Below are positions 1,612 to 56,585 of a stretch of DNA of 64,000 bases, in pieces (position 1 is the first letter of the stretch; each line of letters starts with the position of its first letter). The DNA is from Promethearchaeota archaeon. GTDB lineage: Archaea > Asgardarchaeota > Lokiarchaeia > Sigyniarchaeales > SOKP01. The position numbers and the translations under genes were made by a program. The DNA lies in assembly GCA_019894975.1 (NCBI GenBank), contig JAGXNO010000012.1, positions 11,081 through 75,080 on the forward strand. Direction: 5' to 3'. The notes under the pieces are model-generated. The model was not told the origin of the DNA. It ran no database searches and saw only the letters and a list, made by a program, of their open reading frames with translations.

Positions 1612-1723
1612 GCGGGAATTGCCAAGTCTGGTAAAGGCGCTGGACTTAGATATTACTTCAATATCTGCTGGACTCAGAATTCAGTCTCGTAGGAGTTCGG
1701 GAGTTCAAATCTCCCTTCCCGCA
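1612..1723 (+). tRNA. tRNA-Leu (most likely CAG) with 28-nt non-canonical intron, probably at position 32/33 (1646-1673)
   Basis: Acceptor stem GCGGGAA/TTCCCGC plus discriminator A; D-arm GCC..GGC; anticodon stem CTGGA/TTCAG; long variable arm CTC-GTAG-GAG; T-arm GGGAG-TTCAAAT-CTCCC; BHB-like motif (helix CTGG/CTGG, two ACT bulges, 8-bp intron hairpin); T-run after the gene. Confidence 0.92.
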
Positions 1724-1896
1724 TTTTTTAAAAAATAATTCTTGGGGTAATATCCATTCATGCATTCACTGATAGGATTTATAAATTGATTACTGATTTT
1801 ATTCACTTAATAGAAATAATAAGGTATATTATTTTTTAAATCAAAAATGATAATATATTATTAAAATATTAAGAAAATCTATTCACACATATTATT

Positions 1897-8663: not shown

Positions 8664-10586
8664 ATGATGAATTCTGCTTATTTGACAATGGATAAATTCA
8701 TTACATACTTGAAAAAGGAAGGTATAATTCAAGATCTTTTAGAATTTTATGATATAAACCAAAGCAAACACATTCTAGACACATATTTTGATAAACTCAT
8801 TGAAATCCTCGATAAAAAAGGAAATATTTATGCTTCTAAAAACAGTGTAAACCAATTTAAATTAAAATTTAATTCATTGGGTAAGTTTTATGAAAATAAT
8901 TTACATGAAACGGAAAGAAAGTCATTAGGGGAATTTTATACTCCTAAATCTATAGTGGATTATATTTTAGACGCTGTCGATTATAAAGATGGTGAAGATA
9001 TTCAGAATAAAAAACTTGTCGACATAAGTTGTGGATCTGGAAGTTTTATCATTTTAGCTATTAGAGTTTTAATCAATAATTGTGTTAAGAGCTTTAATAA
9101 GAAAGATATTTCTGAAATTTCACCTAAAGAGGCTAGATACATCATTTTGAAGGTAAATGAAAACATATCTGGCATAGATATAAATCCGATTGCGTGTATT
9201 TTATGTCAGATTAATATTCATCTTGAACTATTTGATTTATTAAAAGTCATTAAAGATAAGGATAAGAATTATCATTTACCACAGTTTAGTATAAAAAATT
9301 CTAACACTTTTACAATTCTTAAATCGGAGATTTATGATTTCATAGTAGGTAATCCACCATATTTATTTATTAGAGACATTCCAGATGAGCAGAAGTTGGT
9401 TATTGAAAAGGGTGATTTTGATACAAATAATGGTCAATATGATTATTATCAAATCTTTATTGAGCTTGGTATTAGACTCTTAAAAAATAAAGGAAAACTT
9501 GGGTATATAGTTCCAGATTCACTATTAGTCCTATCCAACCGCTCCATATTAAGGAAATATATATACAATACCACAAAAATTAGAGAAATATATGAAACTG
9601 GTCCAAAATTTGAGGATCCTATTGTATCAAATATTATTCTCGTTTTAGAAAAAGAATCTGATATGCAAGAAAGAGAGAAAAACTCTATTAAAGTTAAAAT
9701 TTCAGACCAAATAAAGAGAGATATTTTACAAAAGGATTTACAGAAATGGGATTACAAATTTTTAATTCACCTAAGTAAGGAGGATTTATTTATTCTTAAC
9801 CATCTAAAAAAATTCTTTCCTACATTAAAAGATTTAATGATGAAAAAAGATTTTAATATTCTATTAAGTAGAGGGATAGAGTTAACGAAAAAAGGAGAGA
9901 TTATTTTTTGTGAGAATTGTAGGAAATATTTCCCTGTCCCAAAAAGAACACTTGATTGCCCAGAATGTAAAAAACATCTAAAAGAAAGAAATATTGAACT
10001 GATTATTTCTGATTTTGTACCGGAAGAAGAAGAAGGTAAATTTGAATTATTTATAAATTCAATAAATCGCTATAAAGTCAAAAATTATAAATATGTTAAG
10101 GTTGATAAACCAGGGATTAATTATAAAGATTTTAATATTTATAGTGACCGGATTATAATTAGACAGCTAAGCCAAAATAGTTTAATCTGTGCAACTTATG
10201 AGAAAAAATTCTCTTTAACATCCCAATCTTTTTATAATTTAAGAGTTTACAGTTCAGCTATAAAAGAATTTAACAATTTATATCTCTTGGGCATTATCAA
10301 TTCCAAACTCTTATCTTATTATTTTATAAAACTATTTGGTTCTTATAAGAGACTCTTTCCCCGAATATTAATTGAAAAAATTAAAGATTTTCCTATTAGT
10401 ATTCCCGGTAACCTAAATGAAAAAAAATTAGCATCTCAAATAATTAAAAAAGTTGAGATTTTATTAAATTTAAATGAAGGGGAAGAGGAGAAATCTAAGA
10501 AGATCCAAAGAGAAATTGATGAGATTATATTTAAACTTTATAGAATACCTGATTTATATAAGGAAAAGATATTAGAATTTGTATAA
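8664..10586 (+). CDS. N6-adenine DNA methyltransferase (gamma class, Eco57I/TaqI-like) with TRD and zinc-ribbon insert
   Basis: GEFYTP, DISCGSGSF, GIDINP, IVGNPPY, LLGIINSKL; CENC...CPEC insertion. Confidence 0.88.
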   Translation: MMNSAYLTMDKFITYLKKEGIIQDLLEFYDINQSKHILDTYFDKLIEILDKKGNIYASKNSVNQFKLKFNSLGKFYENNLHETERKSLGEFYTPKSIVDYILDAVDYKDGEDIQNKKLVDISCGSGSFIILAIRVLINNCVKSFNKKDISEISPKEARYIILKVNENISGIDINPIACILCQINIHLELFDLLKVIKDKDKNYHLPQFSIKNSNTFTILKSEIYDFIVGNPPYLFIRDIPDEQKLVIEKGDFDTNNGQYDYYQIFIELGIRLLKNKGKLGYIVPDSLLVLSNRSILRKYIYNTTKIREIYETGPKFEDPIVSNIILVLEKESDMQEREKNSIKVKISDQIKRDILQKDLQKWDYKFLIHLSKEDLFILNHLKKFFPTLKDLMMKKDFNILLSRGIELTKKGEIIFCENCRKYFPVPKRTLDCPECKKHLKERNIELIISDFVPEEEEGKFELFINSINRYKVKNYKYVKVDKPGINYKDFNIYSDRIIIRQLSQNSLICATYEKKFSLTSQSFYNLRVYSSAIKEFNNLYLLGIINSKLLSYYFIKLFGSYKRLFPRILIEKIKDFPISIPGNLNEKKLASQIIKKVEILLNLNEGEEEKSKKIQREIDEIIFKLYRIPDLYKEKILEFV

Positions 10587-19021: not shown

Positions 19022-21811
19022 ATGAAAGCAAATCACATTACTCTTGTTTCCGAAACTCATTGGGATAGGGAATGGTACTTACCTTTTCAAGAATTTCGAG
19101 CTAGACTTGTATTACTGATGGATAGATTACTAAATATTCTAAAAACAGACCCAGATTTTAAAAATTTCACATTAGATGGGCAAACTATTCCATTGGAGGA
19201 TTATTTAGAGGTAAGACCTGAAAGAAAAGCAGAAATTAAAAAATATGTTAATGAAGGAAGGCTTTCTATTGGACCTATGTATGTACTACCTGATGAATTT
19301 CTTGTTAGTGGTGAATCCTTAATAAGAAATCTTATGATCGGACATCAGATTAGTAGGAAATTTGGGAAGTTTATGAAAGCAGGATATATACCTGATCCTT
19401 TTGGACATATTGCACAACTACCTCAGATAATAAGCGGATGTGAAATACCCTCAATATTATTAATGCGCGGCTTTGGTAATGAATTTGAAGAAAACAATTT
19501 AAATATGGAATTTGTCTGGAATTCTCCAGGGAACGCAACCTCTGTGTTAGGGATACATCTCATTTTAACCTACCATAATTTAGCATATTTGAATACAAAA
19601 ACTATAAAAGGTGAGTTCAAGCCAGCATTAAGAAGGATCAAAAATGTTGTATTAGATTTCGAGAAACACATCGCAACACCTAATATTTTGTTAAATAATG
19701 GAATTGATCATGAGGAAGCGACCCCAGAAATTCCAAAAATAATAGAACAATGGAATAAATTGTATCCTGAAACTCCTATAGAGCAGGCAGATTTTGAGTA
19801 TTATGTTAATAAGGTAATGGAATCAGGTGCAGAACTGAAAGAGTACCAGGGGGAATTAAGAGGTGGAAAATACTCACCACTCTTGTCGGGGGTATTTTCA
19901 GCGCGAATGTGGATAAAGCAAAGAAATACCGCGATTGAGTATTTATATGAGAAATATACTGAACCACTATCAACTCTAAGTTGGGTACTCGATAAATATG
20001 AAAATTTCATATATCCAAAGGATTATATTTTAACTGGTCTAAAATGGTTGCAGAAAAATGCACCCCATGATAGTATTTGTGGTTGTAGTATAGATGAGGT
20101 TCATAATGAGATGAAGACTCGTTATGATTGGGCTGAGCAGATAGGTGAAGAAGTTTATAAGAACTCTTTTTTATACTTAGCTGAACTCATAAACCCTCAT
20201 TCTAATTATGAAGGTCGAAGTGTTTTAATTATATTCAACCCTCTTCCGTGGAAGAGAAAAGATATTGTTGAATTTAATTCAATCTCAAAAAAAACGACGG
20301 GTGAAAGATTACCTTTTAATATTAAATTAATTGACTCTGAGGAGAATGAAATTGAATTTCAATATTGTCGTGTTGAAGAACAACCAAGATTTACACGAAA
20401 GCAAGGAGTTAGCCACAAAATCTCATTTTTAGCAGAGGTTCCCGCTTTTGGTTATAGAGTTTATTACCTCTTTCCTGTAGAGTCTGAGAACTCTTTTGAT
20501 CTTAATACAAAAGATTTTAAAATTACTAAAGATTTCTTAGAAAACGAATTTTATCTTGTTGAAATTAAGTCAAACGGCTTAATTAACGTTAAAGATAAGG
20601 ATACGGGTATAATATATGAGAATGTATGTGAATTCGAAGATATGGGAGATTGGGGAGATGAATACGACTTTTCTGGTCCGAAAGAGAATCAAACAGATTT
20701 AAGATTCTCAACTGAAGATGCTGCTCTTTTTGAGAAGTCTGTGTACATTAATGGCCCGACTCAAAAAACCTTCAAGTTAAGATTGAATTTAAAGTTACCT
20801 TATTCTCTTACGGAGGATCGATATAATAGAGAAGAATGGTTGGTTGATAATAAGATAACGGTTTTTATAACCTTATATAAAGCAATTAAGCGAATAGATT
20901 TTAAAATTGAGTTTGAGAATAATAGTCGAGATCATAGAATTCGTGTATTGTTTCCTACTATGATAAAATCTGATGTAGTTCATGCTGATGGTCATTTTTA
21001 TGTAGTCCCAAGGAGCATTAAACTACCTAAAGCGGTAAAATGGGTTCAAGACCCTTTACCTACTAATCATCAAAAAGATTTTGTATCGATTAGTGATAAT
21101 TCAAAAACTTTTGCTGTATTAAATAAAGGTTTACCGGAATATGAAGCAATTATTAATGATGATAAAACAATAACATTTGCGATTACTCTTCTGCGATGTG
21201 TTGAATGGTTGTCTCGTGATGATTTCAGCTCAAGAAGATCTCATGCAGGTCCAGGTTATAAAACTCCTGGAGCACAATGCTTGGGTGAACATGCTTTTCA
21301 AATATCGGTTACTACTGAATCAAAATCAAGCTGGTTAGATTCAAATATTCATCAACGGGGAAAACAATTTAACAATCCATTAAAACTAATATTTCCGGCG
21401 ATGGCTCAAAGTGCTCTTAGAACTTCTAATAAAGTTATGTTAAATCCATCTGGGGAGCTTTCCTATGCGGGTGGATCTAAAACAAAACCAATTAAATCTT
21501 ACCTTCCTCCCTCCTTATCATTTCTTAACATTGATAATAGGTATATAGCTTTAAGCGCCTTAAAAAAGGCAGAGGAGGGGAATGATATTATTCTTAGAAT
21601 CTTTAATATCTCATCTAAATCTCAAAATACAAGATTAACCTTCTACGAGAAAATCTTAATTAGGAATGCCGAAATTGTTAACCTCCTTGAAGAGAAACCG
21701 AAGAATGAAATTAAAGCAACAATTAATAATTATAATCAGAACAATCTTGATATAGAATTAAAACCTCATGTAATAGTTACTTTAAAAATTGACTATGAAT
21801 TAATTCATTAA
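19022..21811 (+). CDS. GH38 alpha-mannosidase (MngB-like)
   Basis: THWDREWY, LDGQ, PDEFLVSGESL, PDPFGH, NGIDH, PHDSICGCSIDEVH, DHRIRVLFP. Confidence 0.93.
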   Translation: MKANHITLVSETHWDREWYLPFQEFRARLVLLMDRLLNILKTDPDFKNFTLDGQTIPLEDYLEVRPERKAEIKKYVNEGRLSIGPMYVLPDEFLVSGESLIRNLMIGHQISRKFGKFMKAGYIPDPFGHIAQLPQIISGCEIPSILLMRGFGNEFEENNLNMEFVWNSPGNATSVLGIHLILTYHNLAYLNTKTIKGEFKPALRRIKNVVLDFEKHIATPNILLNNGIDHEEATPEIPKIIEQWNKLYPETPIEQADFEYYVNKVMESGAELKEYQGELRGGKYSPLLSGVFSARMWIKQRNTAIEYLYEKYTEPLSTLSWVLDKYENFIYPKDYILTGLKWLQKNAPHDSICGCSIDEVHNEMKTRYDWAEQIGEEVYKNSFLYLAELINPHSNYEGRSVLIIFNPLPWKRKDIVEFNSISKKTTGERLPFNIKLIDSEENEIEFQYCRVEEQPRFTRKQGVSHKISFLAEVPAFGYRVYYLFPVESENSFDLNTKDFKITKDFLENEFYLVEIKSNGLINVKDKDTGIIYENVCEFEDMGDWGDEYDFSGPKENQTDLRFSTEDAALFEKSVYINGPTQKTFKLRLNLKLPYSLTEDRYNREEWLVDNKITVFITLYKAIKRIDFKIEFENNSRDHRIRVLFPTMIKSDVVHADGHFYVVPRSIKLPKAVKWVQDPLPTNHQKDFVSISDNSKTFAVLNKGLPEYEAIINDDKTITFAITLLRCVEWLSRDDFSSRRSHAGPGYKTPGAQCLGEHAFQISVTTESKSSWLDSNIHQRGKQFNNPLKLIFPAMAQSALRTSNKVMLNPSGELSYAGGSKTKPIKSYLPPSLSFLNIDNRYIALSALKKAEEGNDIILRIFNISSKSQNTRLTFYEKILIRNAEIVNLLEEKPKNEIKATINNYNQNNLDIELKPHVIVTLKIDYELIH

Positions 21812-49040: not shown

Positions 49041-52000
49041 TTGTTTTCAAAAAAAATTAAAGTTCAAATTATAATTGTTATTTTACTTATTTCTTCATTC
49101 GCTTTAATATTTAGATATAAAAACCATAATAATTCTTATTTTAATGTAAATGAGCAAGATAATATTCATACTTCTGCTCAGATTTCAGAAACAAAACAAT
49201 GGATAAAGAACCCTACGTTTGAATCTCCAATAGAACCTTCTTGGTATTGGAAAAATGGTACAGAAGGCGATAATTCAGATGTGAATGCCACTTCAAGCCC
49301 TGGTCAAGCAAATTTTGAAGTATTAGGGGAAACAAGAACCTTTACTGTAGTATCTGGAATTGTTAACTCCTCTACATCACCTGGTTGGAAACAATTTGAT
49401 AAACCAAGTTTTCTTCAACCGGATACAGCAGAAATTCGATCTTATGGGTGTTTTGTTTATCATTATTGGTATGATGATCCTAATCAGTTTCCAAGTGTTC
49501 AATGGAGAACAAATATAAGTATGCCAATAGATATGTCTGATTATATTATAACTTCCGCATCTTTAGAGGTTATTGTAAATGCAACTGTTAGTAGTGATGT
49601 TGATACTCCAAATGATGGCGCTTACTGGGAAAATTTTGCAATAGGAGATTCTGTAACATATTATGCTCAAATTACAGATCTAGAGTATAATGCACCAATT
49701 TATACCGTTGCTTCAAATAAAACGAGATATTTAGGGCAAAATTCTCCTCCAATATTAACTTTAACCAATAAATCATTAGATCCAGTTAGTGAGGTTGATA
49801 TAATTGCTGCTTTAAATTCTGCTTTTGAAAAAGATTCCTCACATTCAAATTTCACGCTTACTTTAGGAATTGATATATATTGTGAAGATAACCTTCAATC
49901 TAGTGATCCTGATACTTTTAATGAATTAATAATTAAAACCTGTAATCTAACTTTTACAGTTATGAAAAAAATTGATCAATCTACAACATTGTCATGGAAT
50001 CAAATCGGTGATGAAATCACGGGGACTAGTGTACAAATCATAGATGCGAATTTTAACTTTAAATATAAAGTTGATAAAATTTGGCCAACGTCTGCACCTC
50101 TTTCTGAACTAAGATTTTATATAAATAATAAGAGTTATGATGCTGGAATAATTAAGTTATCTTCTGCAACTACATCTTTTCAAGAAGCAAAATCTGGGGG
50201 ATTTGATGTAACTGATTTAATTACTGCTAACGTTAATATTTCCGTTTCAATAGAAGTATTTCTTAAAGACACATTTGAACTAGATGAAGTATATATTATT
50301 TCAATTGATGAAGTTTATCTAAACATCTCGTATATAAAAACCTTTCCAGATTACGGAAGTGAGTTACAATTGTTTTTAAATAAAGAAAATAAAACTACTG
50401 ATCCCATGATACAGATATCTTATTTTGACACATTAAATATTACTGTTACTTATAAAGAAAATGAAACAGGAAATCATATTTCAAATTCTACTGTAAAAAT
50501 TGAGGGAAAAGTATCTGATAAGCTAGAGGAAGATGAAATATTTGAACATTATTATATTCTTATTAATACTTCAGAATTAGGACTTGGAGCAAGTGTTTTA
50601 ACTATAAGTGCTCAAAAAGATAATTATGAGGTTAAGAGTGTTCAGATTTATATTGAAGTAATTGAGCAACCAACAGAACTTCAATTAGTAATAGATGATA
50701 TTCAGAGAAGTAGCAAAGAGACTATCGATGTTAAATTCAATGAATTGTTAAATGTTACTGTATTTTTTAAAGATAACCTTACAAATACCCATATCAATGG
50801 AGCTACAGTTAATTTATTAGGTATTGGAAATTTCAGTGAAACAATTAATCATTATAACTTAACTTTAAACACTAATGATTTAAATCAAGGAATTAATATC
50901 CTAACTATTTTTGCACAATTAGATAATTATCAATCTCAAACAATTCAATTCTTCATAAATGTAATAGAAATAGCAACAGAATTATTGATGTTTTTAGATG
51001 GAAACCAAACATATGTTCGTGATACGATTTACAATCAAATTGATGAGTTTATCAACATATCTGTTTATTATCGAAACAATAACACAAAAGAACATATAAT
51101 TGGGGCAAGTGTTGATTTATTGGGGTTTGGAAGTTTAGACGAATTAAATAATCAATATAATTTTTCCTTGAACACTAATGATTTAGTTCGGGGTATTAAT
51201 GTATTAACTATTTATGCTCAACTAAATAATTATCAATCCCAGACTTTTCAGTTTTTCATTAGTATTGAAGAAAGAGGTACAAATTTACTTCTCTTCATTG
51301 ATGAAGTTCAAGAATATCCCAGTGACACTTTCAACACTCAATTTGATGAAATTATAAATATAACTGTTTTATATCGTGATGATAACACAAATATGGACAT
51401 AAGTGGAGCGAGTGTAGAATTATTAGGAATAGGATTTCTAAATGAGACTTCAAATCAATATAATATCTCAATAAGTACTAACATTTTAGAAAAAGGGATA
51501 AATATTTTAACAATTTTTGCTCAATTAAGTGGTTATCAGCATAAAACAATTCAATTTTTTATAAATGTTGATGACAGGGCAACAGAATTATTATTATATA
51601 TAGATGGTGTTCAATTGAATGATAGTGATACAATTCAAGTAGAAATTGATGAAAATATTAATATAACTACTTTATTTCGTGATAAAATTACGAATTTACA
51701 TTTAGGTGGGGCGAGTATAGAATTATTAGGAATAGGATTTCTAAATGAAACTTCAAATCAATATAATATTACGATTAATTCTAATGATTTAGAGCTAGGA
51801 ATTAATATATTAACGATATTTACTCAGCTAAACAATTATCAACCGAATTCAATTCAAATTTTTGTTGATGTGGTTAATAAAGTAACTAATCTAATTGTAT
51901 GTTTAAATGGAATAGATAAAACCAATGATCCTGTATTAACTCTTCCAATTAATAGTCTATTAAATTTAACTATAAAGTATTTACATAATCAAACGGGCCT

Positions 52001-52808
52001 TGAAATAAGTGGAGCATTGTTACAATTGATCGGTGAGGGCCTCATTGAAAATATAAATGAGAATGTTAATTTTTCACAATATTCATTTATTCTCAATACA
52101 ACAAATTTAGGGATTGGAGTAAGGTTATTTACAATTGTGGCTCAAGCTACAGATTTTCAGATAAGTACAGTTGATATTAGAATAACTGTTAATAGAATTA
52201 GCACATCAATAAACACACTTTCTGGAGAAACATATTTTGATATTAGTTCAGAAGATGATTTTCTCATACAAATTGTCCTTAATAACACTGATTTTGGTGA
52301 AATTATTAAAAATGCAACAGTTACTTATCGTTGGGAACGAGGTCAAGGAGAATTGGTTGATTTAGATAATGATGGCATTTATGAAGTAGTACTACGGAAT
52401 CTGCCTGCTGGCTCATATGTTATAATCATAAATGCTTATGCCGGAGAAGATTATGAATTTGAAACTTTTGAAATAATTTTAAATGCTAGAGCAAAACCCG
52501 GATTTGATTATACATTTATTATAATTCTACTATCAATTGGGATCCTTGGACTTGGAACCTACTTCGTTTTATATCAAAAATATTTTAAATACCCTCCAAA
52601 AGTGAGGAAAATAAGAAAGTTGAGAAAGAAAATTAGTAAAAATAAAAGGTTAAATCCTATTTCACTTCAAACACGGGATGATATTATTAGAAGTAAAATA
52701 CAAATGAATAAACAAATGTTAGAACAAGAAAAAATATCGCCGGAGACAAAAATTCAAGTTGAGGATTCAGATGTAAAAAAAAAAGAAGGAGGAGGAGTTA
52801 TTGAGTAA
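49041..52808 (+). CDS. Giant cell-surface glycoprotein with ~100-aa Ig-like repeats, TM and conserved basic cytoplasmic tail
   Basis: N-terminal TM/signal; repeats T.L.L..DG...NITV.Y.D..T..HI.GA.V.L...Y..LNT..L..G.N.LTI.AQL.NYQ; DLDNDGIYE; TM then KYPPKVRKIRKLRK. Confidence 0.8.
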   Translation: MFSKKIKVQIIIVILLISSFALIFRYKNHNNSYFNVNEQDNIHTSAQISETKQWIKNPTFESPIEPSWYWKNGTEGDNSDVNATSSPGQANFEVLGETRTFTVVSGIVNSSTSPGWKQFDKPSFLQPDTAEIRSYGCFVYHYWYDDPNQFPSVQWRTNISMPIDMSDYIITSASLEVIVNATVSSDVDTPNDGAYWENFAIGDSVTYYAQITDLEYNAPIYTVASNKTRYLGQNSPPILTLTNKSLDPVSEVDIIAALNSAFEKDSSHSNFTLTLGIDIYCEDNLQSSDPDTFNELIIKTCNLTFTVMKKIDQSTTLSWNQIGDEITGTSVQIIDANFNFKYKVDKIWPTSAPLSELRFYINNKSYDAGIIKLSSATTSFQEAKSGGFDVTDLITANVNISVSIEVFLKDTFELDEVYIISIDEVYLNISYIKTFPDYGSELQLFLNKENKTTDPMIQISYFDTLNITVTYKENETGNHISNSTVKIEGKVSDKLEEDEIFEHYYILINTSELGLGASVLTISAQKDNYEVKSVQIYIEVIEQPTELQLVIDDIQRSSKETIDVKFNELLNVTVFFKDNLTNTHINGATVNLLGIGNFSETINHYNLTLNTNDLNQGINILTIFAQLDNYQSQTIQFFINVIEIATELLMFLDGNQTYVRDTIYNQIDEFINISVYYRNNNTKEHIIGASVDLLGFGSLDELNNQYNFSLNTNDLVRGINVLTIYAQLNNYQSQTFQFFISIEERGTNLLLFIDEVQEYPSDTFNTQFDEIINITVLYRDDNTNMDISGASVELLGIGFLNETSNQYNISISTNILEKGINILTIFAQLSGYQHKTIQFFINVDDRATELLLYIDGVQLNDSDTIQVEIDENINITTLFRDKITNLHLGGASIELLGIGFLNETSNQYNITINSNDLELGINILTIFTQLNNYQPNSIQIFVDVVNKVTNLIVCLNGIDKTNDPVLTLPINSLLNLTIKYLHNQTGLEISGALLQLIGEGLIENINENVNFSQYSFILNTTNLGIGVRLFTIVAQATDFQISTVDIRITVNRISTSINTLSGETYFDISSEDDFLIQIVLNNTDFGEIIKNATVTYRWERGQGELVDLDNDGIYEVVLRNLPAGSYVIIINAYAGEDYEFETFEIILNARAKPGFDYTFIIILLSIGILGLGTYFVLYQKYFKYPPKVRKIRKLRKKISKNKRLNPISLQTRDDIIRSKIQMNKQMLEQEKISPETKIQVEDSDVKKKEGGGVIE

Positions 52809-52820
52809 ATTGAAGCGGGG

Positions 52821-55800
52821 GTGTCAAAATTGATGCGAAAAAATTATAGAACTATTATTTTAATTATTCTCCTTACCTTTTCCTCACTGATATTTCCTTT
52901 CTTTAGCTTATTTAGTAATACTGGTAAATTTGAAGAAATGAATAATGAAAATATTTTGCAATATTCAGGTGAAACAGTTTATAACAAAGAATGGTTGGAT
53001 AACAATGATTTTTCAACTCAAGCTGATTGGTTTTATTCTAAAGGAGCGCAAGGTGATAATTCCACTGTAGATGCAAATATAATTAATGGTCAAGCTAATT
53101 ATAAGATTATTGGAGACAATGATACTTTTGATATTCTGGCTGGTGAAGTAAATTCTTCAACTTGGTTTGGATGGGGGATATATAACAATAGTGATTATTT
53201 ATTACCTGATGTTTATGAAATTAATGCAACTGGATGTTATGTTTATCATTATTTAGATGAAAGCGAGGGACCTACTGGTGAAGGACAAGTTCACAATTTT
53301 CCTAGTATTCATTTTAGGAAAAATATTAGTTTACCTCAGGATATGTCTGATTATGAAATTATATCGGCTTCGCTAGAGGTAATTTTTAATGCAAGTGTGG
53401 AAGATACTGTTGATACTCCTGGTGATAGTCCTCTTCCTCAAGAAGCAATTTATGATTCTGTTACATTCTATGTCGAAATTGCTGATTTAGACCTAAGCTA
53501 TGCATTTAGAGTTGCTGAAAACAAAACTACAGATTTAGGACAAGATGATCCACCAATATTAAATATAACTGACAGAGAATTAACTTATGTAAGTGAAAGT
53601 GACTTAATTACAGCACTCAATCTAGCTCTTGAAAAAAATCCTTCCCATTCCGATTTTACAATAATATTAGGTATGGATATTTACTGTGAAGATAACGCTT
53701 TTCCCGATTATGATGAATGGAATGCTTTAATATTTAAATCATTTAACTTAACATTGAGTTATGAGAGGAAGGTAGATAAATTTTCTTCAGTTTCTTGGAA
53801 TCAAGAAGGAAATCAAATTACAGGAAGTAATGTTCAAGTTACTGAAGCAAACCTAAAATTTAAATATACAATTAACCAAGATTGGCCTACAGCATTATCT
53901 CCATACTCAGAAATTAAAATATTAATAAATAATAATCCACATCCAGAAACAATAAGATTAAGTTCCGCAAATACTTCTTTGCAAGACGCTAAAGTTGGTG
54001 GTTTTGATGTAACAAATTTAATTTTAAAAAACGTAAATATTACAGTTTCAATTCAAGTATTTATAGCTAATACCTTTGAATTAGGTAGGAATATTACTAT
54101 TTCTATAGATGAAATTTACCTAAATATTACTTATGTTGAAACTTTTTCTGATTATGAGACCCAAGCTCAATTATTTTTAAATTCTGAAAATAAAACTGCG
54201 GATCCATATATTCAAATACCTATTGCTAATAATTTAAACATTACAATAAAATACATCGATAATCAAACCTTAAATCATATCACTGACGCATTAGTCCAAT
54301 TAGAAGGGAAAGAATCTGGAGAATTGGTTGAAAATTCTTCATTTGAACAATATACCATTATTATAAATACATCCAAATTAGATATAGGTTTATGGCCCTT
54401 AAGTGTTATAGCACAAAAGAATAATTATGTAACCCAAACATTTCCATTCTATGTAAACATAATTGAAAGGCCAACTGAATTTAAGGTCTTTGTGAATGGT
54501 GAGGAAAAGACTACTAATAACACTGTAAAGATAAAATCTAATGAATTTATGAATATTACTGTTTTATATAAGGATAACTCAAGTAAACAACATTTAAGTG
54601 GAGCAAATGTAAGTATATCTGGTATAGGAAATTTTGATGAATTAAATGAGCAATATAATCTTACACTAAACTCAAACACCCTTGGTTTAGGTTTTCATGT
54701 TTTAACTATCAATGCACAGACACAGAACTATACTATACAGACTTTTCAATTATTTGTTGAAGTATTTGAAAGAGAAACAGAATTAAGGTTATTTATTAAT
54801 GGTATTCAGAGGTTTGATAATAATATTATTCGAGTAGAAGTATTTGAATCCATAAATTTAACAGTTTTTTATCTCGATGATAGTTTAAAAACATATTTGA
54901 GCGGTGCAGGGATTTCATTACTAGGTTTTGGTAATTTCAGTGAAATTGGTAATCAATATAATTATACTCTAAATTCGCTTAATTTAAATTTAGGATTTAA
55001 TGTAATAACTATTTATGCTCAATTAAATAATTATGAGACTCAAGTTATTCAATTTTATATTGAAGTTTTTGAACGGGAATCAGAAATACTATTATTTATT
55101 GATAGTAATCCAATAAATGCGAGTGATACTATACAAGTTGAAGTGAATCAGTTCTTAAATATTACTATTTTTTATAAGGATAATTTTACGAAACTGAATC
55201 TTCCAGGTGCTATAGTTGAACTCATTGGTTGGGGTAATTTTAGTGAAATCAGCAGCCAATATAATTATACAATTGATACTAATGATTTAGAACAAGGAAT
55301 AGCTATATTAACTGTCCAAGCAAAATTAACTAATTATAAGTTTCAAACTATTCAATTTTATGTAAAGGTAGTTGAAAGAGATACAGAGTTGCAATTATAT
55401 ATTAATGATATTCAAATAAATGCGAGTGATGTTATACAGGTAGAAGTGAATCAGTTCTTAAATATTACTATTTTTTATAAGGATAATTTTACGAAACTGA
55501 ATCTTCCAGGTGCTATAGTTGAACTCATTGGTTGGGGTAATTTTAGTGAAATTGGCAGTCAATATAATTATACAGTTGATACTACTGATTTAGAACAAGG
55601 AATAACTATATTAACTATCCAAACAAAATTAACTAATTATAAGTCTCAATCTATACGATTTTATGTAAAGGTAATTGAAAGTTCTTCAAGTATACAATTA
55701 TATTTAAATGGTGAAGATAAAACATTTGATCCTGTAATAGAATTACCAATAGGATCAAGCCTAGATATAACAGTAAAATTTACTGATAATATTACAGGAT

Positions 55801-56585
55801 TTCATATTTATAATGCATCCGTCAGAATTGAAGGAGACCTTGTTTTACTAAATTCAACAGAAAATATTGGATTAGAACAATATTCATTTAACATTGATAC
55901 AACAATTCTAAAGATTGGGGTTAATCTGCTTAAACTCACAGCTTATAAGCCCAATTATAAGATCAAGGAGATAAACTTAAGAATTACCATCAACAAGATA
56001 AGGGCAGTTATTAGTACAATATCAGGAGAATCTTATATAATCATTGGATCAGGACAAAGTATTAATTTGAGAATAATATTGAACGATACTGATTTTGGAG
56101 GTACAATAAAAGGAGCAATAGTGACATATAGGTGGGCATATGGTCAAGGAAACCTCACAGATTCTGATAATGATGGTATTTACGAAGGATTAATTGAAAG
56201 TGTTCCTATTGGAACATATATTATTACTATAACCGCGTCAGGTTATGAAAATTATGACTTTGAAAGTTATGAAATAATTTTAAGTGTAATAACTGAAGAG
56301 GGAGGTCCAGAGAGTTTAACTTGGTTGGTGTACATTTTGGTGGGTGTAATTGTAGGTTTAGTTGGAGTATTTAGTGCCTACCAACTGCATTTTAAATACC
56401 CACCAATGGTTAGAAAAATAAGAAAATTACGTAAAAATATAAGAAAAGACAAGAAAACAAAACCAATTATACTTAGTCAAAGAAATGAAATATTACAAAA
56501 TAAAATCAAGTCACAAGCAGATATTATTGGTTTTGAGTCACAATTACCAGATAAGATAATTGAGGAAAATAAAATAAAAAAATAA
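52821..56585 (+). CDS. Giant cell-surface glycoprotein (tandem paralog of 49041)
   Basis: Collinear with the neighbour (DMSDY, LG.DIYCEDN, AK.GGFDVT, DNDGIYE, KYPPMVRKIRKLRK). Confidence 0.8.
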   Translation: MSKLMRKNYRTIILIILLTFSSLIFPFFSLFSNTGKFEEMNNENILQYSGETVYNKEWLDNNDFSTQADWFYSKGAQGDNSTVDANIINGQANYKIIGDNDTFDILAGEVNSSTWFGWGIYNNSDYLLPDVYEINATGCYVYHYLDESEGPTGEGQVHNFPSIHFRKNISLPQDMSDYEIISASLEVIFNASVEDTVDTPGDSPLPQEAIYDSVTFYVEIADLDLSYAFRVAENKTTDLGQDDPPILNITDRELTYVSESDLITALNLALEKNPSHSDFTIILGMDIYCEDNAFPDYDEWNALIFKSFNLTLSYERKVDKFSSVSWNQEGNQITGSNVQVTEANLKFKYTINQDWPTALSPYSEIKILINNNPHPETIRLSSANTSLQDAKVGGFDVTNLILKNVNITVSIQVFIANTFELGRNITISIDEIYLNITYVETFSDYETQAQLFLNSENKTADPYIQIPIANNLNITIKYIDNQTLNHITDALVQLEGKESGELVENSSFEQYTIIINTSKLDIGLWPLSVIAQKNNYVTQTFPFYVNIIERPTEFKVFVNGEEKTTNNTVKIKSNEFMNITVLYKDNSSKQHLSGANVSISGIGNFDELNEQYNLTLNSNTLGLGFHVLTINAQTQNYTIQTFQLFVEVFERETELRLFINGIQRFDNNIIRVEVFESINLTVFYLDDSLKTYLSGAGISLLGFGNFSEIGNQYNYTLNSLNLNLGFNVITIYAQLNNYETQVIQFYIEVFERESEILLFIDSNPINASDTIQVEVNQFLNITIFYKDNFTKLNLPGAIVELIGWGNFSEISSQYNYTIDTNDLEQGIAILTVQAKLTNYKFQTIQFYVKVVERDTELQLYINDIQINASDVIQVEVNQFLNITIFYKDNFTKLNLPGAIVELIGWGNFSEIGSQYNYTVDTTDLEQGITILTIQTKLTNYKSQSIRFYVKVIESSSSIQLYLNGEDKTFDPVIELPIGSSLDITVKFTDNITGFHIYNASVRIEGDLVLLNSTENIGLEQYSFNIDTTILKIGVNLLKLTAYKPNYKIKEINLRITINKIRAVISTISGESYIIIGSGQSINLRIILNDTDFGGTIKGAIVTYRWAYGQGNLTDSDNDGIYEGLIESVPIGTYIITITASGYENYDFESYEIILSVITEEGGPESLTWLVYILVGVIVGLVGVFSAYQLHFKYPPMVRKIRKLRKNIRKDKKTKPIILSQRNEILQNKIKSQADIIGFESQLPDKIIEENKIKK
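55112..55680 (+). repeat. Intragenic 303-bp tandem duplication (one Ig-like repeat)
   Basis: Units start at ~55112 and ~55415; 110 bp identical (55140-55249 vs 55443-55552). Confidence 0.85.

Follow-up and report, generated by a model that had tools for sequence, protein, structure and literature searches.

Within a 64,000-nt stretch of DNA from a Loki-type Asgard archaeon of the Promethearchaeota (the window), a tRNA-Leu gene carries two synonymous leucine anticodons, TAG and CAG, which raises the questions of whether its transcript matures into one isoacceptor or into two, and how the intervening sequence was acquired. The genome that contains the window, labeled G000 (other G numbers denote relatives, and L numbers extracted loci), was assembled to 3.9 Mb with 31.6% G+C and 95% completeness, and its tRNA genes are intron-rich. 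The explanation that best accounts for the locus as a whole, and in which we place considerable confidence, is that this is the only Leu(CAG) gene of the genome, interrupted between tRNA positions 32 and 33 by a 28-nt intron that probably arose by duplication and that would carry the TAG triplet away when it is spliced out.

A tRNA-Leu gene with a direct repeat over both predicted splice sites

The gene (1612-1723, forward strand) specifies a 112-nt precursor without an encoded CCA, and was assigned to tRNA-Leu(CAG) by Rfam and synteny. It scored 45 bits against RF00005 (gathering score 29; model positions 1-71), with an alignment that spans the full model and contains a 30-nt insertion in the anticodon region. 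The T-run read from the sequence directly 3′ of the discriminator base (1724-1729, forward strand) is a probable transcription stop. The 12-nt direct repeats reported in the first-pass annotation, GCTGGACT-TAG-A at 1639-1650 and GCTGGACT-CAG-A at 1667-1678, both on the forward strand, are indeed present; the copies are offset by 28 nt and identical at 11 of 12 positions, the sole mismatch being the wobble base (T1647 versus C1675). Copy 1 (GCTGGACTTAGA) comprises the exonic G26, the 5′ strand of the anticodon stem and C32, followed by U-UAG-A of the intron, and copy 2 (GCTGGACTCAGA) comprises the seven last intron bases, G-CUGG-AC, followed by the exonic U33-CAG-A37. A 12-mer direct repeat with at most one mismatch appeared anywhere in the gene in 96 of 20,000 dinucleotide-preserving shuffles (p ~0.005), and by our own estimate the chance that such a repeat would in addition be in phase with the 28-nt intron and extend over both splice sites is ~1e-4 to 1e-5.

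Judged by sequence alone, the gene can be read in two ways, as had been claimed. Nine equivalent 28-nt deletions, from 1639-1666 to 1647-1674 (last exon base 1638-1646), leave one and the same 84-nt product with anticodon CAG, and four further deletions (last exon base 1647-1650) leave an 84-nt product with TAG. The splicing register was predicted by enumerating BHB motifs over the whole precursor, each defined by a 4-bp helix whose strands are both followed on the 3′ side by a 3-nt bulge, with cleavage past bulge base 2. This cut rule was validated on the G002 orthologue, in which a perfect canonical hBHBh′ (CUCA/UGAG) leads to exactly 37/38. The best-ranked motif was the CUGG/CUGG candidate, the only one to leave a tRNA-sized product of 84 nt. 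In its central helix, CUGG at 1640-1643 pairs with CUGG at 1668-1671 at four of four positions, two of them G·U (C-G, U·G, G·U, G-C). The two ACU bulges occupy 1644-1646 (predicted cut 1645/1646) and 1672-1674 (predicted cut 1673/1674), and the intron hairpin (1647-1667) pairs 1647-1654 with 1660-1667 over 8 bp around a loop at 1655-1659, all features lying on the forward strand. The outer helix is a single pair, G1639-C1675 (G26-C34). With flanking helices of 8 bp inside and 1 bp outside, the motif falls into the non-canonical BHB class, in which at least one flanking helix is required. The symmetric motif previously described from the letters (CTGG/CTGG with two G-U pairs, ACT bulges, and a hairpin) is real, and it is the top candidate across the precursor. 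The predicted 5′ exon extends from 1612 to 1645 (tRNA positions 1-32, ending on C32), the intron from 1646 to 1673, in agreement with the deletion enumeration, and the 3′ exon from 1674 to 1723, containing U33, the anticodon CAG (1675-1677), the remaining tRNA, and the discriminator A, again on the forward strand.

Because the intron length equals the repeat period, the strands of the central helix carry one and the same 4-mer in every register, and only the G·U-palindromic CUGG pairs with itself. Counting against the motif are the shortness of its outer helix, the G·U pairs in its central helix, and the minimum-free-energy fold of the naked RNA, which is a structure other than the BHB. Conformer thermodynamics were set aside, as the mature tRNA itself gives no cloverleaf in silico.

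According to the proposed mechanism, CUGG in the anticodon stem (5′ strand, positions 27-30) would pair in the precursor with the duplicate that the intron has at its 3′ end. The intron body would fold into the 8-bp hairpin and, together with the CUGG/CUGG pairing, would complete a BHB with two ACU bulges. A two-subunit splicing endonuclease would then cut both bulges past their second base (1645/1646 and 1673/1674), and a ligase would join C32 to U33 to yield an 84-nt tRNA with the anticodon CAG. The TAG at 1647-1649 would be intronic, paired in the hairpin, and discarded. Two EndA paralogues of ~200 aa each, 30% identical, are encoded in G000 (contigs C22 and C55). Paralogue 1 has Tyr, His, and Lys at the aligned positions that we take, from M. 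jannaschii EndA, to be the catalytic triad, and paralogue 2 lacks the Tyr and His; judged from these alignments, a pair with one catalytic-looking and one non-catalytic-looking member fits an (αβ)2 enzyme. The two-paralogue architecture has been reported for most Asgard genomes (bioRxiv 10.64898/2026.10.13.758758).

Alleles in related genomes and the TAG triplet

The flanks of the gene are syntenic with the Leu(CAG) loci, and not the Leu(TAG) loci, of at least eight related species; the syntenic set includes G002, G018, G003, G021, G011, G009, G020, G059, G061, G048, and others. In the genus, the Leu(CAG) gene is mostly intron-less and 84-85 nt long. An intron-less gene in G061 (L061:1478-1561, minus strand; 56.2 bits) is identical to predicted exon 1 joined to exon 2, and the intron-less G052 gene likewise matches the predicted spliced product. 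Empty intron sites were found in G061, G052, G048, G049, and G018. A tree of rpoB DNA was used to order the genomes, since the tree of a single flanking gene gave no resolution. It placed G000 with G059 and G064 as (G000,(G059,G064)), with support 100/99, recovered G061, G048, G049, G018, and G002 as the sister clade, and had the intron-less G052 as outgroup. The comparison covered the genomes other than G064, the sister of G059, whose assembly lacks the Leu genes and the flanking gene.

The nearest relative found to carry the gene, G059, has a homologous 28-nt intron (L151:1501-1612, minus strand). Its copy 1 reads CA-TTG-A, with neither U33 nor TAG, and in its copy 2 the stem strand CUAGA would be mismatched against UUCAG, so that a tRNA can be obtained solely from junctions 29/30 to 32/33, matching the BHB prediction. 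The G059 intron differs from that of G000 at eight positions. Five lie in pairs and keep the pairing, including an inner A-U replaced by U-A, an inner U-A replaced by G-U, and a central U·G replaced by U-A (partner strand CUAG); the remaining three comprise a loop change, a bulge change, and a change that disrupts a terminal pair. Pattern scans of public collections re-found G059 and revealed one additional allele, L160, on a metagenome contig with 86-92% flank identity to the window. L160 has a G000-type intron with the TAG kept, and its two changes relative to G000 are both in the hairpin loop. The BHB is kept through compensatory change across the three alleles, although a set of two to three sequences has no statistical weight. 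The position is also an established one, as a 30-nt intron of the same geometry occupies 32/33 of tRNA-Ala(CGC) in ~24 species of the genus. Taken together, BHB geometry and the relatives uphold the earlier prediction of cleavage at 32/33 with a CAG product, and the making of Leu(CAG) by BHB splicing at this locus, with the cleavage itself predicted from sequence, is well supported.

The Leu(CAG) orthologue of G002 (L030:1501-1600) contains an unrelated 16-nt intron at the canonical 37/38 position, within the perfect hBHBh′ noted above. It is a second, independent gain at the Leu(CAG) gene within one small clade.

The suggestion that the gene is alternatively spliced into two isoacceptors can be weighed against these data. 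A separate, intron-less Leu(TAG) gene is present in G000 (C104:7228-7312; 57 bits with Rfam), as the first-pass annotation had proposed checking, and its existence speaks against dual coding; the same check yielded no second Leu(CAG) gene in the genome. The body of this Leu(TAG) gene is almost identical to that of the window gene, and its anticodon stem differs (GUGGA/UCCAU). The other Leu genes of G000 have the anticodons TAA (C140), CAA (near C104:18139), and GAG (near C90:13087), and no CAG anticodon arm other than copy 2 of the window gene occurs in the genome, so that reading the gene as CAG provides G000 with all five Leu anticodons. Splicing of one precursor in two ways, into tRNA-Leu(CAG) and tRNA-Leu(UAG), would be consistent with the intact, cloverleaf-sized sequence of both 84-nt products, with the retention of the copy-1 TAG in G000 and L160, and with the Rfam and ARAGORN alignments, in which the gene appears as Leu(TAG) and the insertion follows the anticodon. 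We nevertheless consider it very improbable. Read directly with the BHB geometry, the four TAG registers form only zero to two of the four central-helix pairs (none at the canonical 37/38), neither a BHB nor a relaxed BHB is found in any of them, and the 37/38 cut site sits within the 8-bp hairpin, where bases 1647-1650 are paired. G059, like G000, has a separate intron-less Leu(TAG) gene, and has lost U33 and TAG from copy 1. A locus making two isoacceptors would be marked by a splice motif for each product, by the lack of a separate gene for the second, and by conservation of both anticodons; here, there is a motif for one product, a second gene, and a TAG that one relative lacks. The triplet at 1647-1649 is almost certainly a decoy, a piece of intron that is thrown away, and its T1647 is explained by the U·G pair that closes the intron hairpin. 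No new route to isoacceptors is revealed by the locus.

Even less probable is that the window gene is an additional tRNA-Leu(TAG) gene, interrupted by a 28-nt intron at the canonical 37/38 position, in a genome without Leu(CAG). Such a gene would agree with the Leu(tag) call that ARAGORN makes with its intron option and with the Rfam alignment, which sets the insertion after UUAG, and a CAG tRNA might be dispensable in G000, where CUG accounts for 3.7% of Leu codons, the smallest share of any. Against it stand the lack of any central pair in the canonical BHB, the CAG anticodon of all syntenic orthologues, including the intron-less G061 allele, and the G059 allele, which cannot be read in this manner and lies below the Rfam gathering score.

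The repeat could also have been created by an assembler that merged two Leu tRNA genes, one TAG and one CAG, and the two Leu genes of G000, being identical in their 5′ and 3′ parts, are repeats of the type that confuses assemblers. The probability of such an artefact is practically negligible, as contigs of independent origin refute it: one from a different study covers 1400-1687 with 0 differences, running from unique upstream sequence through both copies, and one from another sample covers 1617-1714. Homologous introns in G059 and L160 lie between diverged flanks, and the stem of copy 1 is of the CAG type, not the TAG type. No RNA run was listed as containing the locus, and a run labeled as metatranscriptomic contributed a single contig with the 3′ exon only, and is hence uninformative on splicing.

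Possible origin of the intron

From its distribution, we infer that the intron in the window was gained once and recently, on the branch to G000 and G059. A DNA-level event may have duplicated the 12-nt target G26-A37, leaving a 16-nt spacer between the copies. Owing to the quasi-palindromic nature of the unit G-CUGG-ACU-C, two direct copies would pair into a BHB core of 1+4+1 bp; the new insert would have been spliceable at once, since both copies would build the core unaided, and the repeat would later have eroded more in G059. The repeat would then be the birth scar of the intron, a proposal that we put forward tentatively, at slightly less than an even chance. Consistent with it, a direct repeat of the target brackets the insert and the corresponding sites in relatives are empty. 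The flanks are syntenic with those of intron-less relatives, showing that nothing else was co-inserted. Neither a donor of the insert nor a related intron copy in another gene was found in the G000 genome, where the best other match was a 15-nt A/T-rich segment (E = 0.05).

The alternative is that the repeat is no scar, and that selection for the BHB fold, combined with chance or with later intragenic conversion, produced the resemblance. The fold demands 4 of the 12 repeated bases, the G059 copies match at only 8 of 12, and the 32/33 intron of Ala(CGC) resembles its exon in part for structural reasons, the ends of its CUUG/CAAG helix being palindromic. The young G002 intron, which has no comparable repeat across its splice sites, also favors this reading. 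The wobble-equivalent base, which is U rather than C in both G000 and G059, counts against duplication as well, as does the 16-nt spacer, for which no source was found. On the other side, CUGG is one of eight partner strands that the fold allows, and the bulge AC, the U at the first intron base, and the AGA match are not demanded by it. In other 32/33 introns of the genus the 3′ bulge reads UC, UA, or UG; bulge bases are thus unconstrained there, and the shared AC/ACU bulges suggest that the two copies descend from one sequence. G000 and G059 differ at three repeat sites, and at each of them the exon-like base is found in G000 and L160; polarizing the ancestral state at these sites would take an outgroup intron. 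The chance of the repeat under the structural constraints is ~3e-5 by our estimate. On balance, we judge an origin of the repeat without duplication rather unlikely. Birth by duplication of anticodon-arm sequence, which had been suggested at the outset, accounts for the repeat better than any other available explanation but is unproven, and the accompanying suggestion that isoacceptor sequence was inserted is unlikely, since the copy-1 stem, CTGGA, is of the CAG type and the stem of the TAG gene is GTGGA.

Two simpler ideas were rejected. A 28-nt tandem duplication is contradicted by the 16-nt spacer, which matches the downstream exon at only 5 of 16 positions, and a requirement for symmetric bulge bases at 32/33 is contradicted by the Ala(TGC) introns of the genus.

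Related systems, annotation, and other tRNA genes

The intron of this Asgard tRNA gene is of the non-canonical BHB type and may bear a birth scar. Like the non-canonical BHB introns described in Thermoproteales and Asgard archaea (PMC4090602, PMC4033280, bioRxiv 10.64898/2026.10.13.758758), it is short, lies outside 37/38, and uses a 3-4-3 BHB, and it shares with them the two EndA paralogues and a late, patchy gain among close relatives. It differs from them in the identical strands of its central helix (CUGG), by which the intron end copies the exon, and in its 12-nt repeat over both splice sites with a decoy anticodon. In Caldivirga maquilingensis, split and tri-split tRNAs were described in which several isoacceptors arise from one shared body joined to pieces with different synonymous anticodons (Fujishima 2009, as relayed in PMC4033280). 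Those pieces are separate transcripts with a BHB each, in contrast to the single transcript and single BHB of the window, where the second anticodon has no splice motif, is not conserved, and has a separate gene. In yeast, tRNA-Leu(CAG) genes derive from intron-containing tRNA-Leu(UAG) by U34C (PMC4090602). The two cases share the single transition that separates UAG from CAG, but the yeast change is an anticodon switch of a whole gene, whereas the window has both triplets in one gene, with one of them exonic.

Transposition of introns among tRNA genes has been described for Thermoproteales (Fujishima 2010, as relayed in PMC4090602 and bioRxiv 10.64898/2026.10.13.758758), and almost no cross-gene intron families were found in Asgard archaea (bioRxiv 10.64898/2026.10.13.758758). 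The shared elements are a DNA-level event and a late gain where a BHB can form; unlike the Thermoproteales introns, that of the window has no related copy elsewhere in G000.

Spliceosomal introns can arise by tandem duplication of an exon segment that contains AGGT. The analogy would lie in the joint supply of both splice sites, which makes the insert removable immediately. The machinery is different, however, and the signal in the window is an RNA fold built from the paired copies. The gain is cleanly bracketed, with filled sites in G000, L160, and G059, an empty sister clade, and an independent intron in G002. If the proposed route is general, duplication of a self-complementary site may be one way by which BHB introns enter Asgard tRNAs, and perhaps mRNAs. 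How these introns arrived has been stated to be an open question (bioRxiv 10.64898/2026.10.13.758758), for which a repeat that would both mark the target and build the splice signal offers a concrete and testable model.

The decoy anticodon misleads annotation. In default mode, ARAGORN found no tRNA in the window, and with the intron option its calls were unreliable; as a validator of spliced products its output was noisy. Both ARAGORN and the Rfam alignment suggest Leu(TAG) for the window gene, and the G059 Leu(CAG) gene (L151:1501-1612), which falls under the Rfam gathering score, is called tRNA-Asp(atc) with the intron option. Where the decoy is misread or the gene is missed, genomes will seem to be without tRNA-Leu(CAG). 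Both genes fit the report that Asgard tRNA introns are under-called (bioRxiv 10.64898/2026.10.13.758758).

Several observations were made on other tRNA genes. About 35 tRNA genes were found in G000 despite its 95% completeness. Truncated or arm-only hits occurred on the minus strand at C104:7829-7880 and C111:16483-16537, and near C90:13087 and C104:18139; they appear to result from T-arm introns, with Leu(GAG), Leu(CAA), and an Asn(GTT)-like gene as examples. A tRNA-SeC(tca) was called by ARAGORN at G000:C44:65495-65582 (minus strand; 33.5 bits with Rfam). The tRNA-Ala(CGC) gene of G000 (C98:95903-96004, minus strand; L010:1501-1602), called Val by ARAGORN, has its 30-nt intron at 32/33 within CUUG/CAUG (three of four pairs) and AUU bulges. 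Most relatives have CAAG on the intron strand (four of four pairs), and others have CGAG or CCUG.

The Ala(TGC) genes of the genus (L162-L181; G000:C104:161-262) have at least two different introns at different positions, one at ~25/26 in G000, G002, G059, G061, and G069, and one at 32/33 in G051, G005, G067, G012, and G024. That of G000 includes an 8-nt copy of the anticodon loop (CTTGCACT), which is not conserved in relatives and is probably due to chance; the idea that introns generally copy the anticodon loop was accordingly dropped. A D-loop intron of 32-33 nt is present in the Leu(TAG) genes of most species of the genus (L032-L049, L074-L088), and is absent from G000, G059, G002, G024, and G062. 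It ends in AGGC, which is also the end of the preceding exon (a 4-nt microhomology). For the intron boundaries of genes other than that of the window, a simple cloverleaf scorer proved too permissive, and only microhomology lengths were used.

Elsewhere in the window, two adjacent ORFs on the forward strand (49041-52808 and 52821-56585) encode proteins of ~1255 aa each with no Pfam match, an Eco57I/MmeI-type methylase-like ORF lies at 8664-10586, and a GH38 alpha-mannosidase is encoded at 19022-21811.
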